IMG/VR virus record: IMGVR_UViG_3300042090_002485
Span: 123,863-187,862 of that record
Reading direction: 5' to 3' (one strand)
DNA length: 64,000 nt
DNA from: a virus
In this document: one piece after another, positions 4,524 to 64,000 of the stretch
How the letters are laid out: the number at the start of each line of letters is the position of its first letter
How positions within the stretch are numbered: the first letter of the stretch is position 1
Translations under genes and position numbers: made by a program
Notes under the pieces: model-generated
Told to the model about the DNA's origin: nothing
The model's database searches: none
What the model saw: the letters and a program-made list of their open reading frames with translations, nothing else

Positions 4524-4910
4524 ATGCACATCAACGAGTACCAGGTCCTCGCCGCCGTCACCGAGTTCACCCCCGACTTCGTCCGCCTAGGGCAGGGCCC
4601 CGAGCACGACATGATGGTCGCGCGCCTCCTGCACTCGACCTTGGGCATGATGACTGAGGTCGGCGAGTTCGCCGACATGCTGAAGCGGCACATCTTCTAC
4701 GGCAAGGCCCTCGACGAGGTCAACCTGCTGGAGGAAAACGGCGATCTGGCTTGGTACCAAGCACTGGCCCTGAACGCGACGAAAAAGAACCTCGAGGAGT
4801 GCCTCGAGAAGAACATCGCCAAGCTCAAGGCCCGGTTCGGCGACAAGTTCACGCAGCACGCGGCGCTCAACCGCGACCTGGCCAAGGAGCGGGCTGAACT
4901 GGAGAAGTGA
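4524..4910 (+). CDS. mazG: MazG-like nucleotide pyrophosphohydrolase
   Basis: LGMMTEVGEFADMLKRHIFYG...EENGDLAWY...NIAKLKARF: typical phage MazG ExxE/ExxD signature. Confidence 0.9.
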   Translation: MHINEYQVLAAVTEFTPDFVRLGQGPEHDMMVARLLHSTLGMMTEVGEFADMLKRHIFYGKALDEVNLLEENGDLAWYQALALNATKKNLEECLEKNIAKLKARFGDKFTQHAALNRDLAKERAELEK

Positions 4911-4911
4911 C

Positions 4912-5190
4912 ATGAAGATCGAGGTGGACGGCGTCGAGCTGACAATTACGCGGACCGCGTCCATGCTTCGCGTAGCGCGCGTCGTTGGAAGAGACCGCAA
5001 GGCGAAGAAGGACATCATAAACCACGTGGACGTCGTTGACGACGGCTTCTTGCTGCTCCGTGCCATGCGCCGTGTCGCCAAGTGGACGCCCGAGGGCTGT
5101 ACGTGTACGTATGGCTACGGCTGGAGCGACCACGACGCCCACTGCAAGAGCATCTACAAGGCCCAGGAGTACGTCGACTTCGACGACTAA
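4912..5190 (+). CDS. hypothetical protein
   Basis: 92 aa, 1 nt after mazG stop. Confidence 0.65.
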   Translation: MKIEVDGVELTITRTASMLRVARVVGRDRKAKKDIINHVDVVDDGFLLLRAMRRVAKWTPEGCTCTYGYGWSDHDAHCKSIYKAQEYVDFDD

Positions 5191-47182: not shown

Positions 47183-47381
47183 GCCGTTCGTCGCGACGTG
47201 GAACGGTGGGGTCCTCGCGCACCTGCTGGTGCCGTACGACCGCGTCGCGCAGAACATCGGTGATGTGTTTCGGGCGCTGTGCGGCACCACCAATCGATGG
47301 TCAGAGGGCTTCACCGATAACCAGTTCGTCAAGGTCGAGGGGCCGCCGACGTGCGTGCTGTGCTGGGCGGCGGCGCCATGA
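47169..47381 (+). CDS. TCxxC-family small Zn-finger-like protein
   Basis: GVLAH...LCG...PTCVLCWA. Confidence 0.8.
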   Translation: MHRFEPFVATWNGGVLAHLLVPYDRVAQNIGDVFRALCGTTNRWSEGFTDNQFVKVEGPPTCVLCWAAAP

Positions 47382-47632
47382 CGGTCTACAACAACGTGCG
47401 CGGTCCCGACGGTATCGTGCACAACATCCTATTCGGCGAGCGCTGGGGCACGCGCTGCGGTAACACGTTCGGCAACGAGCACGTGGATCCAGAATGGCGG
47501 CCGTCGGCGGACGTGGTCACCTGCGTGCGGTGTGTTGCTGGGGTACGCGAGACCAGCCTCCTCGAGGACAGGGCGCTCGACGCGTTGTTGTGCGCGTTGG
47601 TCGAGGCCTACAAGAGGTCGCCCAATGGCTAA
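47378..47632 (+). CDS. TCxxC-family protein with a captured C-terminal tail
   Basis: GPDGIVH...RCG...VTCVRCVA; tail DALLCALVEAYK.PNG matches end of 49626-49952. Confidence 0.8.
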   Translation: MTVYNNVRGPDGIVHNILFGERWGTRCGNTFGNEHVDPEWRPSADVVTCVRCVAGVRETSLLEDRALDALLCALVEAYKRSPNG

Positions 47633-47667
47633 GCTCACCGCGAAGAGTCTCAGGCTCGCTGATGACG
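47578..47667 (+). repeat. direct repeat copy 1 (gene-junction duplication)
   Basis: 47621-47662 identical (42 bp) to 49941-49982, with diverged homology upstream. Confidence 0.9.
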
Positions 47668-47852
47668 AGACCTTGTGCGACGCGATCGAGGTGCTCTACG
47701 CGAACAAGGACCTGCCGCCGAGCGACCCCGCGGCGTGGCACGTCACCGACGCGACCGTCACGTGCGTCAAGTGCCTGGCCGCGGACTTGGAGAACGACGC
47801 CGTCAACGCGGCATACGAGCGCATCCGGCGAGGCCGCAATGGCGCGTATTGA
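47625..47852 (+). CDS. chimeric TCxxC-family protein
   Basis: MAKLTAKSLRLADD shared with 49945 gene; VTCVKCLA. Confidence 0.75.
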   Translation: MAKLTAKSLRLADDETLCDAIEVLYANKDLPPSDPAAWHVTDATVTCVKCLAADLENDAVNAAYERIRRGRNGAY

Positions 47853-48138
47853 CAAGCCGCACACGCTCGGCTTGGTCATGGATCCGGACGGCGTCGTGCA
47901 CGGCTACGTCTACGTCCCGTTCGACCCGACCAAGCACTTCCAGTTCACCAACTGGCAGATTCAGGGCATCGTGCAGGAGGGGGACGTCATCAAGATCGAG
48001 GCGTCCGCGGACAAGCTCGAGCTGTTGCCGGTCTACGTCACGTTTTGCGGCGCTCCGTTCGACGACCTCGGCTGGGTGGACGTCGCCGACAAGCTAGTCA
48101 CGTGCGTGGGCTGCTGGGCGATGGTGTGCACGCCGTGA
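47839..48138 (+). CDS. TCxxC-family small Zn-finger-like protein
   Basis: DPDGVVH...FCG...VTCVGCWA. Confidence 0.8.
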   Translation: MARIDKPHTLGLVMDPDGVVHGYVYVPFDPTKHFQFTNWQIQGIVQEGDVIKIEASADKLELLPVYVTFCGAPFDDLGWVDVADKLVTCVGCWAMVCTP

Positions 48139-48451
48139 GCGGCGGGCCTCCGGCGTGGTTGTGCGCGTGCGATCCTTATGACCCGGAAGACTCGCACGTC
48201 GTGCACCTGTTCGGTTTGTCTGCGCTTTCCGACAGCATAGGCAAGCGCTTCTACGTATCGTGCTGTTCGCTCGGTTTCATCCAGCAGGCAGTTCATGCCA
48301 AGTACTGGACGTTGTTCATCCAGCAGGTAGTTCATGCCAAGTACTGGATGTTGGACGAAGCAACCAACTGGCGATCAACCAAGACGCTCCGACGTGCGCC
48401 CTGTGCGTCGCCTACTCGCCGTCCGATTTGGTATACGGACATGGACGATAG
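48135..48451 (+). pseudogene. frameshifted TCxxC-family gene
   Basis: DSHVVH..SCC in one frame, PTCALCVA in another; internal 2x39-bp duplication 48276-48353. Confidence 0.65.
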
Positions 48452-48459
48452 AGGTGCCT

Positions 48460-48714
48460 ATGATCACTGTTAGACCGACCATCATCAGCGACCACGCCAT
48501 CGAGCGCGCGATGACCCGTCACATGGGCGTCCCGTCGCTGCACGTCGGGCCGATCGTCGAACGCTACGCCGCGAAGGTGCGCCGCAAGCTCGAGGCCCTG
48601 CTCCTCAGCGCCGAGCACGTTGGGCCTGACGGCCACTGGCAGATCTGGCGCACGCAGACGGGGCATCTGCTGACCGTTGACGTTGATGGCGTGGTGCGGA
48701 CGATCTTGCCGTGA
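48460..48714 (+). CDS. small hypothetical protein (HAIER motif)
   Basis: GAGG SD; ISDHAIERA...LTVDVDGVVRTILP. Confidence 0.65.
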   Translation: MITVRPTIISDHAIERAMTRHMGVPSLHVGPIVERYAAKVRRKLEALLLSAEHVGPDGHWQIWRTQTGHLLTVDVDGVVRTILP

Positions 48715-48968
48715 GCGAGCACGAGCTGCCGCCGTATCTGGTCGACAATGTGCTTGGTCCTGATGGCATCGTGCACAGCACCTACGCGCACGGCGCGTTC
48801 GGTGACAAGCTCGGCATCGACATCTATGTCGTGTGCACGGCGCGCAAGCCGCATGGATTGCCTGTGGTCGAGGGGCCGGCGACGTGTGTCATGTGCTTCG
48901 CTGACTGGCCGAAGACGCAGCGCTGGGTGCGTTATGCGATCATCAACTCTCGTGGCACAGACCCGTGA
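48711..48968 (+). CDS. TCxxC-family small Zn-finger-like protein
   Basis: GPDGIVH...VC...ATCVMCFA. Confidence 0.8.
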   Translation: MSEHELPPYLVDNVLGPDGIVHSTYAHGAFGDKLGIDIYVVCTARKPHGLPVVEGPATCVMCFADWPKTQRWVRYAIINSRGTDP

Positions 48969-49211
48969 GAGGCATTCGCCTCATCGTCATGGTCCACGAG
49001 GTCGTGCTGTCGTACTCTGCCCCCCCATTACACCAAGGTTTCGGCTCAGCCGCGCTACGTCGTCAGGACGCGGTGCGGGCGTAGCTACAGCTTTTCGATG
49101 GCCATGTATCACGAGAAGCACATCAATAACGATGCTGTCATCACGTGCGTGCGTTGTCTCGCTGGTGTCGACGCCGAGGGTCGTGCGCTGCCGATGGCGT
49201 TTGAGGGCTAG
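48965..49211 (+). pseudogene. TCxxC-family gene frameshifted at a C7 run
   Basis: VMVH... then C7 (49020-49026); removing one C gives ...RCG...ITCVRCLA to TAG 49211. Confidence 0.75.
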
Positions 49212-49215
49212 GGCG

Positions 49216-49410
49216 ATGACCGCCGAGGAGCTGCAGCACGTTCTGGACGAGGTCTACAAGCTCGCCATGGCGTGGCACGACCGCGACCCAGCGTGGGACG
49301 CCAACGCCATCGCGCGCGTGCTGCTTTACGCGGGGACGATCTACGCGAAGTCCACAGGCGCCTCGCTCGAAGAGGTCCTGGAGATGGTAACCCAGACGTT
49401 TATGAAGTAA
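49216..49410 (+). CDS. small hypothetical protein
   Basis: 64 aa, helical. Confidence 0.6.
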   Translation: MTAEELQHVLDEVYKLAMAWHDRDPAWDANAIARVLLYAGTIYAKSTGASLEEVLEMVTQTFMK

Positions 49411-49425
49411 ACACGGAGGTCGAAC

Positions 49426-49629
49426 ATGAACCGAGCCAACCGCAAGGCCAAGCTCTCCAAGTACGAGGTCGTTGTCACGCGCCAGATCGAGCAGGTGATC
49501 ACGTTGATGGTCGAGGCGCGGTCTAAAGAAGAAGCCCAAGACGTCGCGACGAACATCGCTAACGACGATGGGCGAAGCTGGATGTCGACGGTGGTAAATC
49601 AAAACGCGAAGGTCAGGAAGCTACGATGA
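49426..49629 (+). CDS. small hypothetical protein
   Basis: GGAGG SD; YEVVVTR...VEARSKEEA. Confidence 0.7.
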   Translation: MNRANRKAKLSKYEVVVTRQIEQVITLMVEARSKEEAQDVATNIANDDGRSWMSTVVNQNAKVRKLR

Positions 49630-49952
49630 AGACTACGATGAAGACTGCGACGAAGGCAAACATTGGGCGCATCCTGGCTGCCGAGGCTCGCGTCAAGGAC
49701 CTCGAGGCGTCGCTCAAGAACGAGATCGCGGAGCGCTTCGCCGATAACCAACGGCACAAGGACGAGTGCGACCGTCTGCGTGACGAGATCCGCGACGCAC
49801 AGCAGCCCGACGACGACGAGGCTAAGCGCGCGTCAAAGCAGGGCCTCGATTTTATCGTCACCGTCGAGCAGAACGTCAACCTGCGCGCCGAACGTGATGC
49901 GCTGCTGCTCGCGCTGGTCGCGGCCTACAAGACGAGGAAGCCCAATGGCTAA
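49626..49952 (+). CDS. coiled-coil hypothetical protein
   Basis: 108 aa. Confidence 0.7.
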   Translation: MKTTMKTATKANIGRILAAEARVKDLEASLKNEIAERFADNQRHKDECDRLRDEIRDAQQPDDDEAKRASKQGLDFIVTVEQNVNLRAERDALLLALVAAYKTRKPNG

Positions 49953-49987
49953 GCTCACCGCGAAGAGTCTCAGGCTCGCTGACGACG
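49896..49987 (+). repeat. direct repeat copy 2 (gene-junction duplication)
   Basis: see 47578-47667. Confidence 0.9.
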
Positions 49988-50334
49988 TCCGGCTGTCCGA
50001 TTCGTTCGCCAACACGCGAGACCACTACAAGGTCGTCACCGACCGCGTCCTGTTCTACCGCATCAGTGGCTCCGACCATATCGGGTGGCAGGTGACGCCG
50101 ATGCTAAACGCACTGATCTACATCAAGATGAAGGGGACCACGCATGTCGTATCGTCGTACGAGCATGGCGAGCCGCTGGTCGTACGCAAGGCAAATGGTT
50201 TCATCGACCGGTCCGCGCACACCTTTGCCGAGACGATCGTGAAGTCGATTAGCGCACTCGAGCAGCGCGCTGGTGAGGTTCGCGAGGAAGAGAAGCGGGT
50301 CATGCACGCGGCCAAGAAAGGCCGTAAGCGATGA
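49945..50334 (+). CDS. hypothetical protein
   Basis: 129 aa, starts MAKLTAKSLRLADD. Confidence 0.7.
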   Translation: MAKLTAKSLRLADDVRLSDSFANTRDHYKVVTDRVLFYRISGSDHIGWQVTPMLNALIYIKMKGTTHVVSSYEHGEPLVVRKANGFIDRSAHTFAETIVKSISALEQRAGEVREEEKRVMHAAKKGRKR

Positions 50335-51721: not shown

Positions 51722-51960
51722 TGAACGACAACGAGCCTAAGGAAGCCATCGGCACGCGTCGCTCGCGCTGTGCCAACGGCATCGACAACCATCACGAGTT
51801 CATCGTCCTCGCGGACGACTCGCGCGTGCTCGAAGCTGACGCAATCGCGTTGCTCGACGCTGGCTGCATCCTGTACATGAAGAATCCAGGCAGTACCGCG
51901 CGCCTGCTGTTGCAACACCGGCGGTGCGAGCCCTGCCAGAGGGAGGTCCTGTTCGCATGA
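51721..51960 (+). CDS. small hypothetical protein
   Basis: 79 aa, coupled. Confidence 0.55.
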   Translation: MNDNEPKEAIGTRRSRCANGIDNHHEFIVLADDSRVLEADAIALLDAGCILYMKNPGSTARLLLQHRRCEPCQREVLFA

Positions 51961-52535
51961 TGGTCATGTTCCACGACGACGATTGCGGCGAGCTGCTCGA
52001 CGGCGACGGCGAGTGCCCCAAGTGCAAGTTTCACCCCGACGGGCAGAGCGTCGCGTTTCAAGAGGTCGACGACGTGCTGCTGCGCGACGGCATCGAGCGC
52101 GTGGGCCGCACCTACCTCGGCAAGTACCGTGAGCGTATCAATCGCGCCGTGCAGGTCACGCCGCCCCCGCCGGAGCCCACATTCGAAGAGCCCAAGCTTG
52201 CCGAGGTCATCCCGCTGCCGACACCGCAAGCCCCGCCGCCGCCAGCGCCGCCCGACGACGAAGAGGCGGAGCTGCTGAAGGTCCAGGAGGACGTCTACAA
52301 GGAGTTCAAGCGACGGCTCACGGAGGTCACGGGTGACATCATGACCCGCTACACCGAGGGCAGCTTCGCGCGCGCGGCCACGATGATGGCGGTGCTGCAC
52401 GCCACGCTCGCTGAAGAGGTCGGTCGCGCCGAGAAGATCCTCGAGGGCGCACTGCACCGCGCCGGCGCGCCGGTGCCTAACCTGCTCGCAACACGCACCC
52501 TACGCATCGAGCGCGGTCGCAAGATGGCCCGCTAG
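51957..52535 (+). CDS. hypothetical protein, paralog of 52841-53218
   Basis: CGE...CPKC N-terminus, Pro-rich linker, helical domain VLHA..A.EVGR.EK.LE. Confidence 0.7.
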   Translation: MMVMFHDDDCGELLDGDGECPKCKFHPDGQSVAFQEVDDVLLRDGIERVGRTYLGKYRERINRAVQVTPPPPEPTFEEPKLAEVIPLPTPQAPPPPAPPDDEEAELLKVQEDVYKEFKRRLTEVTGDIMTRYTEGSFARAATMMAVLHATLAEEVGRAEKILEGALHRAGAPVPNLLATRTLRIERGRKMAR

Positions 52536-63431: not shown

Positions 63432-64000
63432 GTGCTCGAAGTCCTGCTCAACACCGCGCGCCTCATCTACGTCTTCATGCGGTCATCGAGCACAGGCTCA
63501 GGCCTCGCAGGCGAGGCTGGCTCAATGGCCATCACGGCCTCGAAGAACGGCAGCGCTGGCGCGACGATCACGCCGACGATCACGGACCTTGGCTCCACCC
63601 TTGGCGCTGGATGGTACACGCTCGCGCTGACCTCTGGGCATTTGAACACGCTCGGCCAGATGGCGCTGCACATCATCTCGTCGAACACCATCCCGAACGA
63701 CGACGTCTTGCTCAACGTCATCGCGGTCGACAAGACCGACGCGGTGCACTTTGGACTGTCGTCGCTGCCGAACGCTGCCGCGGCCGCGTCGGGTGGCCTT
63801 CCGACCATTGGAACCGGCGCGAACCAATTCACGACCGACGGCGCAGGTAATGTGAATGCGGACGTCGTTGTACCCGCAAGCCTTGCGACGGCCGCGGACG
63901 TGACCGCGTCGACCGCGACGATCGCGTCCGACATCACCGCGTCGACCGCGACGATCGCGTCCGACATCACCGCGTCGACCGCGACGATCGCGTCCGACAT
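63432..64000 (+). CDS. probable virion structural protein, runs off the window
   Basis: GAGG SD, GTG 63432; open to the end; GWYTLALT..HLNTLG motif; absent from ORF track because no stop. Confidence 0.65.
   Translation, partial: MLEVLLNTARLIYVFMRSSSTGSGLAGEAGSMAITASKNGSAGATITPTITDLGSTLGAGWYTLALTSGHLNTLGQMALHIISSNTIPNDDVLLNVIAVDKTDAVHFGLSSLPNAAAAASGGLPTIGTGANQFTTDGAGNVNADVVVPASLATAADVTASTATIASDITASTATIASDITASTATIASD
63902..64000 (+). repeat. 33-bp tandem repeat, 3 or more copies (TASTATIASDI)
   Basis: accgcgtcgaccgcgacgatcgcgtccgacatc repeated to window end. Confidence 0.9.

Follow-up and report, generated by a model that had tools for sequence, protein, structure and literature searches.

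The A/B and donor gene pairs

The window analysed here is a 64,000 nt stretch of the complete 187,862 bp genome of an uncultured 188 kb phage. It includes two pairs of overlapping genes whose boundaries lie about 2.3 kb apart, and the sequence across the boundary of the upstream pair (copy A) is related to the sequence across the boundary of the downstream pair (copy B). The features of both pairs, in window positions, are:

47378–47632, + strand: gene A, an 84 aa His/Cys3 mini-protein that has the complete set of anchors (GxVH...C...TCxxC) and, from approximately residue 68, a foreign C-terminal tail
47579–47667, + strand: copy A of the junction patch, the derived copy, which runs from the tail codons through a GAGG ribosome site and the ATGGCTAA stop/start overlap to codon 14 of gene B
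47620–47662, + strand: exact core of copy A, 43 nt, one of only two copies in the genome
47625–47852, + strand: gene B (P0004), 75 aa, which lacks the His anchor and combines the foreign N-terminus MAKLTAKSLRLADD with the C-terminal TCxxC half of a family member
49626–49952, + strand: donor-up gene, 108 aa, predicted to form a single long alpha-helix, with a C-terminal tail that is conserved more strongly than any other part of the family
49896–49987, + strand: copy B of the junction, the source, native to both flanking genes
49945–50334, + strand: donor-down gene (P0001), 129 aa, of no known family, with its native N-terminus

Extent and limits of the repeat

Sequence comparison revealed an exact core in which 47620–47662 and 49940–49982 are identical (43 nt). 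It contains the 42 bp identity (47621–47662 and 49941–49982) reported in a first-pass annotation of this DNA, which had also claimed further homology upstream. When the whole 187,862 bp genome was compared with itself using BLAST, the match widened to 47579–47667 versus 49896–49987 (86% identity over 92 nt, E 4.7e-22), with one 3 nt indel within the 92 nt alignment of copies A and B. The upstream homology is real, as the left flank, with 29/36 matching positions, is significant alone, and in a scan of both strands (375,654 genome positions) no other site scored as high. The left limit is sharp, at 47578/47579, and the next 36 nt outward match at only 13/36 positions, which is background. The right limit is gradual, with similarity beyond 47667 falling to 11/25 and then to 7/30. 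Homology gives way to background at both ends of the segment, as is seen at mosaic joints.

The repeat spans an 8 nt stop/start overlap (ATGGCTAA), and a GAGG ribosome site lies inside the patch, 8 nt upstream of the ATG. After these two copies of the junction, the next best site for the core in the genome matched at 27/43 positions, and a genome search found no third or partial copy of the core at any other gene start. The exact core had no match in the viral contig collection, and a megablast search against known phages also returned no match.

Confirmation of the assembly

The first-pass annotation had named misassembly across the repeat as the finding that would overturn its reading. The record is a metagenome assembly, and k=31 contigs assembled from public runs do break inside the 43 nt core. 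However, they break there because any repeat longer than k has this effect, and the 43 nt repeat is shorter than an ordinary read. All four joins, namely those of the left and right flanks of copy A and the left and right flanks of copy B with the core, were found without mismatch in contigs from the wetland runs X2 and X3, and copy B is bridged by a contig from run X4. In a linear molecule that has two direct repeats and four distinct flanks, X-R-Y-R-Z would be the sole route that visits every part a single time. Three contigs encode exactly this chimeric gene B protein, and the genome has been assembled at both 187,862 and 187,590 bp. The arrangement is present in independent samples, and we consider an assembly artefact extremely unlikely.

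In run X4 no cover was listed at 47603–47703, but the depth of that run is only about 3 and it is silent on the absence of copy A there. Run X5, from lake water, included only a small share of the stretch.

Gene A and gene B are chimeric

The TCxxC family is very large and is hypervariable between fixed anchors. There are approximately 60 family genes in this phage, and the chimera sits inside one of their arrays. A family HMM of 55 nodes was built from 50 paralogues. Gene A matched nodes 3–52 (31 bits), with the GxVH, the central Cys and the TCxxC all in one module. Its tail past the TCxxC is 32 aa, against a family median of 11 aa, and aligns to the donor-up family; gene A ends in ...DALLCALVEAYKRSPNG and the 49626 gene in ...DALLLALVAAYKTRKPNG. 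Gene B, which starts at 47625 and not 47626, matched only nodes 33–52, the TCxxC half (19.6 bits), and includes no GxVH. It opens with the same MAKLTAKSLRLADD as the 49945 gene, and its first 14 residues are those of the donor. Gene B is a truncated, chimeric member of the His/Cys3 TCxxC family. Neither donor protein matched the family. These comparisons bear out the proposals that one family gene acquired its tail from the 49626 gene and that the next took the N-terminus of the 49945 gene and lost its own family start.

Both chimeric frames are open and look coding, with GC3 values of 0.87 for gene A and 0.96 for gene B. Searches of Pfam and PHROGs with gene B, the donor-up and donor-down genes and the neighbours of the donors returned nothing above threshold, and the protein cluster of gene B is a singleton.

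Direction of copying

The predicted fold of the donor-up protein is a helix over residues 2–104 (pLDDT 94). Five distant homologues of this protein, namely P0008–P0011 (46–49% identity) and one encoded at 4866–5135 of a metagenome locus, L003, all end in ...AERDALL.ALVAAY[KR]TRKP joined to a homologous body. L003 was the sole yield of one of two metagenome scans, the other of which was empty, and no related locus came up among the viral contigs. On the donor-down side, P0002, an 86% orthologue, carries KLTAKSLGLADD running on into VRLSDSF.... Copy B is hence native on both sides, and copy A is foreign to both of its genes. As the outgroup homologues carry the tail and the N-terminus of copy B natively and copy A is foreign to genes A and B, we conclude that the junction was copied from 49.9 kb to 47.6 kb, which is the direction claimed in the first-pass annotation.

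L003 also has this donor-up tail; the sequence after it, beginning at the start codon, belongs to a different gene, and there too the tail codons ACG AGG AAG are directly upstream of the ATG of the next gene. A role for the donor-up tail as a linker conserved at the DNA level was considered and dropped, because of the codons of the tail that encode the same amino acid in the window and in L003, roughly 6/21 (~29%) differ. Conservation of the tail is explained by constraint on the protein together with codon bias.

A probable one-off templated patch

The arrangement is probably the result of a one-off, short templated patch, in which approximately 90 nt of the donor junction was copied into the boundary between gene A and gene B. 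A segment crossing the boundary of two unrelated genes, donor-up and donor-down, at 49.9 kb was copied 2.3 kb upstream into the boundary of two adjacent zinc-finger mini-genes. It comprises the last ~15 codons of donor-up, with the GAGG embedded in them, then the ATGGCTAA overlap and 14 codons from the start of donor-down. In the recipient it would have replaced the original end of gene A together with the original start of gene B, and with that start the GxVH zinc-ligand anchor of B would have been lost. Both joints appear to be non-homologous and may have arisen when replication switched templates or through a pair of illegitimate crossovers. As both frames stayed open, the variant survived. 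Gene A now ends in a piece of the coiled-coil helix of the donor, and gene B would be translated from the donor initiation region, coupled to gene A in the manner of the donor pair. Once captured, the tail of gene A would have drifted or adapted fast, and the start region of gene B would have stayed identical to its source.

A second short templated patch was found in the same genome, in an unrelated membrane-protein gene. It is 54 nt long (53/54 identical), and its source is 1.66 kb from the insertion point, which is the joint of a 198 nt tandem duplication. Because of this second patch, we conclude that the short-patch process recurs in the genome. Recombinases of the RecA, RecT and ERF families were not detected in the phage, and no genome with an unpatched A/B boundary was found among the viral contigs or in the metagenome scan.

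This is a clear but ordinary case of sloppy recombination reshuffling phage genes, and it reveals no new mechanism. Because an outgroup is available and source, copy and both borders have all been identified, it provides a clean, fully polarised example of the birth of small phage genes. A single short copying accident would have generated two hybrid proteins with translational coupling preserved, and one member of a very large zinc-finger mini-protein family can survive without its histidine anchor.

Divergence after capture

The left part of the patch includes 9 substitutions and a 3 nt deletion in 41 nt, and the captured tail is approximately 20% diverged. The differences are unevenly distributed, with 9/41 on the left versus 1/48 on the right (Fisher p 0.005). 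When L003 was used as the outgroup, 8 of the 9 substitutions and the 3 nt deletion were assigned to the copy A lineage. Four of the changes are C-to-T. The first-pass annotation described the locus as a snapshot, implying a fresh event, but this description is not borne out, given the 20% divergence that the captured tail now shows. A single neutral event does not explain the uneven divergence, which calls for selection on the tail that was relaxed or positive, for a constrained start region or for later conversion.

Conversion would be part of a two-step history that modifies the templated patch and does not compete with it. The junction would have been captured at an earlier time, possibly from the donor-up gene of a diverged relative, and recent gene conversion would then have made only the right ~48 nt uniform again with the resident copy. 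The contrast between the two sides of the patch is consistent with this, as is the proportion of same-amino-acid codons that differ in the left flank (4/14), which is like that seen in the tail between the window and L003. However, the contrast at synonymous sites is weak (about 4/13 versus 1/14 or more), the excess on the left is mostly non-synonymous, in line with a simple loss of constraint on the tail in gene A, and copy A remains more similar to copy B of the same genome than to L003. We consider the two-step history possible but rather unlikely. If the start region was instead under constraint, the identical 43–48 nt could have been selected as a cis element, either a portable cassette for translation initiation and coupling or an operator for a shared translational repressor, with the copy kept for its function and not as a passive scar. 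There are no changes over 43 nt that include approximately 14 synonymous sites, right beside the 20%-diverged flank, the GAGG and the stop/start overlap are within the patch, and the ACG AGG AAG codons precede the ATG of a different gene in L003. Nevertheless, a cis element appears improbable, as there are two copies only, with not even a partial third at other gene starts, and the two bases that follow the GAGG differ between them. Moreover, predicted RNA structure was not significant in either copy (z -0.07 to +1.8, no better than shuffles), and a scan of both copies found no promoter-like or terminator-like site. It is quite doubtful that the 90 nt junction as a whole is a portable functional module that transfers a conserved coiled-coil helix end together with a coupled translation start. 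If it were, the tail could dock zinc-finger protein A on the donor-up protein or its partner, selection would hold the start region identical in both copies, and the event would be a natural tag transfer between phage micro-genes that resembles exon shuffling. Complex prediction for gene A with donor-up gave a score of 0.00, which is evidence neither way.

The first-pass annotation had gone further and read the locus as direct evidence that unrelated fragments are set between module anchors, that is, a dedicated mechanism for cassette shuffling or diversification, with one fragment caught in the act. The size of the family, its hypervariability between fixed anchors and the position of the chimera within one of its arrays are in keeping with such a mechanism. 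However, what was found is a single event in which the patch deleted one anchor, the histidine, and crosses a gene boundary. The self-BLAST that the annotation had suggested, for captured fragments in other members, was performed on the whole genome and complemented with an all-against-all protein search, and this remained the sole case among the ~60 family genes. The other captured fragment in the genome is in the unrelated membrane-protein gene. No flanking repeats resembling recombination sites were found. A reverse transcriptase (PF00078) had no match in the complete 187,862 bp genome, though control genomes responded, and the substitutions are not adenine-specific. A diversity-generating retroelement (DGR), with copies B and A as the template and variable repeats, was rejected because there is no reverse transcriptase, only 2/9 substitutions are at template (copy B) adenines and a 3 nt deletion is present. 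As there are two copies only, no reverse transcriptase and no third site, and an anchor was removed, there is no evidence for a shuffling system here, and we regard one as very unlikely. The hypervariability of the family is not explained by this copying event.

Comparison with known systems

In the Hendrix/Hatfull model, as presented in PMC3029335, phage mosaicism arises via illegitimate recombination near gene boundaries. The patch resembles this in the abrupt loss of homology at both joints near a gene boundary, in the intact frames and in needing no site-specific machinery. It differs in that donor and recipient are 2.3 kb apart in one genome, and in that the ~90 nt piece is a gene junction, not a gene, and, with no module swapped, gives two chimeric proteins. 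Conserved boundary 'linker' sequences have been proposed to guide homologous exchange of phage modules (refs 21-22 as cited in PMC3029335). Like a linker, the patch is a conserved sequence at a gene junction, and in L003 the donor-up tail precedes a different gene. However, the recurrence of a linker was not seen, as this genome has only two copies and the viral contig collection contained no exact match.

In mycobacteriophage Island3, the products of two neighbouring genes, gp67 and gp68, share 18 C-terminal residues as a ~50 bp DNA repeat that was read as a footprint of recombination (PMC3029335). Both cases involve a short direct repeat of a gene 3' end within one phage genome that is visible in protein and DNA. 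Unlike the patch, the Island3 repeats lie on either side of an inserted gene and the sharing is limited to C-termini, while here the repeat crosses a stop/start overlap and also moves an N-terminus, and the flanks of the derived copy are both non-native.

FoSTeS/MMBIR-type events involve template switching, and templated insertions, at the breakpoints of rearrangements. The A/B patch is like these in that a nearby template supplied a short stretch for a new joint, and the position of the second patch, exactly at the joint of a tandem duplication, is the classic signature of such events.

Two copies of a gene junction in the His/Cys3 gene train

The virus record is complete, at 187,862 bp and 64% G+C with direct terminal repeats, and the window is its final 64 kb. 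No near relative was found among deposited phages. The terminal repeat is short, with 89 nt identical at both ends (window 63885-64000; genome 1-164), and is made of approximately 33 nt tandem units that recur at the left end of the genome. Between 44 and 50 kb, the window contains small, densely packed, co-oriented genes, whose neighbours overlap at ATGA or GTGA or lie a short spacer apart. Many encode mini-proteins of the His/Cys3 family (GxVH ... C ... TCxxC), of which a pattern scan found approximately 60 genes in the window and just before it.

Whole-genome self-BLAST matched 47579-47667 (copy A) to 49896-49987 (copy B), with 86% identity over 92 nt and one 3-nt indel (E 4.7e-22). Within this match lies a 43-nt stretch with no differences (47620-47662 and 49940-49982), here called the core. 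The first-pass annotation had reported 42 identical nt, which fall inside the core, and further homology upstream, which the longer match confirms. The left flank matches at 29/36 positions, and is significant by itself; this level is reached nowhere else in 375,654 genome positions. Its border is sharp, as the adjoining 36 nt match at the background level of 13/36, while on the right similarity wanes past 47667. Both copies span an 8-nt stop/start overlap, ATGGCTAA, and hold the final 15 or so codons of the upstream gene, which include GAGG 8 nt 5' of the ATG, together with the opening 14 codons of the gene downstream. The genes involved are:

Gene A, 47378-47632, 84 aa, upstream gene at copy A
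Gene B, 47625-47852, 75 aa, downstream gene at copy A
Donor-up, 49626-49952, 108 aa, upstream gene at copy B
Donor-down, 49945-50334, 129 aa, downstream gene at copy B

All four frames are coding by third-position G+C, which is 0.96 in gene B's own part.

Misassembly across the repeat, which would have undone the first-pass reading, was not borne out. Three other wetland runs (X2, X3 and X4) yielded contigs, assembled with k=31, that end inside the core, as a repeat of 43 nt would lead one to expect. Every flank/core join was found in them without mismatch, the two copy A joins being on separate contigs. The four wetland runs share one year and habitat, and possibly belong to one campaign.

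Contigs that join the flanks to the core
Copy A left flank into core, 47300-47649, run X2
Core into copy A right flank, 47633-48301, run X3
Copy B, 49132-49969 and 49940-50300, run X2
Copy B, 49758-49982 and 49953-50300, run X3

Copy B is also bridged by one X4 contig, from 49762 to 50241. The exact gene B protein is recorded on 3 contigs, and the genome has been assembled at 187,862 and also at 187,590 bp. As the four flanks differ, X-R-Y-R-Z would be the sole linear path.

Origin of the junction

When 1.8 billion representative proteins were searched, four homologues of donor-up were returned (46-49% identity). All four alignments extend to the extreme C-terminus, and the best-conserved stretch is the tail, ...AERDALL.ALVAAY[KR]TRKP. 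A fifth homologue is in the metagenome locus L003. As all five share the tail, it is native to donor-up. Good conservation among the donor-up homologues (window 49626-49952) is confined to the last 30 or so residues. For donor-down, one relative was found (P0002, 86% identity), in which KLTAKSLGLADD is continuous with VRLSDSF..., and the N-terminus is therefore native to donor-down.

A family HMM was made from 50 paralogues, and neither donor matches it. Gene A matches it across the whole module (nodes 3-52) and then has a tail of 32 residues, where the family median is 11. The match of gene B is confined to the TCxxC half (nodes 33-52), and the donor's 14 residues stand in place of the N-terminal GxVH anchor. 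This agrees with the earlier gene-level reading, in which one family gene gained the donor-up tail and the next gained the donor-down N-terminus and lost its own start. By these comparisons copy B is native to both of its genes and copy A is foreign to both of its own, so the junction was copied from 49.9 kb to 47.6 kb.

L003 (L003:3268-6027, metagenome contig Ga0302326_10003789) is a syntenic, more compact relative of the gene train. Its order is family zinc mini-genes, the donor-up homologue, a different gene and a homologue of window 51957-52535. The different gene encodes a C2H2-like protein of 116 aa and begins at the same place via an ATGA overlap. As L003 keeps the same tail codons (ACG AGG AAG) directly 5' of this gene's ATG, the 3' end of donor-up probably also serves as an initiation region. 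The stop codon of donor-up is a mosaic breakpoint between relatives.

Divergence of the two copies

The left 41 aligned nt of the patch contain nine substitutions and a 3-nt deletion, and the right 48 nt one substitution (Fisher p 0.005). With L003 as the outgroup, 8/9 substitutions, four of them C-to-T, and the deletion fall in the copy A lineage. Most of these changes alter the protein (L to C, A to E, T lost, K to S). Read most simply, a tail that is near-invariant in its home family was freed of constraint once joined to gene A, and the start region remained fixed. The right part might also be less diverged owing to a short gene conversion at a later time, or to selection on the initiation region at the nucleotide level. 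The contrast between the two parts is weak when restricted to synonymous sites. Under any of these readings, the divergence of the left part means that the junction is not the fresh snapshot first described.

Mechanism

Capture of unrelated fragments between module anchors, as first proposed, was not supported as a shuffling mechanism. Beyond the two known copies, neither the core nor its sub-words occur again in the genome (next best site 27/43), and neither repeat peptide recurs elsewhere. When 395 candidate ORFs were all compared with one another for short matches of high identity, only the junction and one other case came up. No RNA structure and no promoter-like or terminator-like site was found in the repeat, and no RecA, RecT or ERF recombinase was detected in the phage. 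A DGR was ruled out, as the substitutions lack adenine specificity and no reverse transcriptase is encoded in the genome.

The other case is a 54 nt patch (whole-genome coordinates G000:C1:10542-10595) copied, with 53/54 nt identical, from a gene's 3' end that lies 1.66 kb upstream. It falls precisely on the joint of a 198-nt tandem duplication within the gene for a 610-aa membrane protein, with the classic look of replication template switching. That one genome holds two short patches, both templated from nearby, points to error-prone copying rather than a family-specific mechanism. The second patch derives from the 3'-terminal 18 codons (G000:C1:8879-8932) of a gene of 125 aa, whose product may resemble a response-regulator receiver domain. 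The membrane protein is multi-pass, and the patch and duplication (G000:C1:10398-10740) lie outside the window.

The junction copy fits the standard view of phage mosaicism, in which illegitimate recombination acts near gene boundaries. A similar case is gp67/gp68 of mycobacteriophage Island3, where gene ends are repeated over approximately 50 bp (PMC3029335). Unlike in standard mosaicism and Island3, the copy is intragenomic, a junction rather than a gene has moved, and two chimeric proteins were made at once. We consider it a new, well-documented case of a known process.

Probable consequences for the proteins

Donor-up is predicted to form one unbroken helix (a single 103-residue alpha-helix, residues 2-104; mean pLDDT 94) and may be a coiled-coil-like rod. 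The last turns of this helix would thus have been added to gene A, after a zinc module that is still intact. Gene B lacks the histidine ligand and retains Cys18, Cys47 and Cys50. Its translation probably begins at the ribosome site and start taken from the donor, with the same coupling to gene A that donor-down has to donor-up.

Other variants near the repeat

The family gene at 48135-48451 is frameshifted, with its GxVH and TCxxC parts out of frame with each other, and holds a 39-nt tandem duplication (48276-48353; 13 codons, 95% identical). An X4 contig has an additional A after 48380 (2.66 of 6.26 depth) that gives a single open frame with all anchors, so the window copy is either misassembled or a broken allele. 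A candidate variant in an X2 contig (window 48148-48714) skips 565 nt, taking in the broken gene and an 84-aa gene (48460-48714); the shorter side of the joint is only 21 nt, and it may derive from a paralogue or another organism. In a second family gene (48965-49211), the reading frame is interrupted at seven consecutive C (49013-49019). With six C, the His anchor and VITCVRC would share a frame and the member would be intact, and an X2 contig has eight; the tract is either a length-variable homopolymer or a sequencing error within a family gene.
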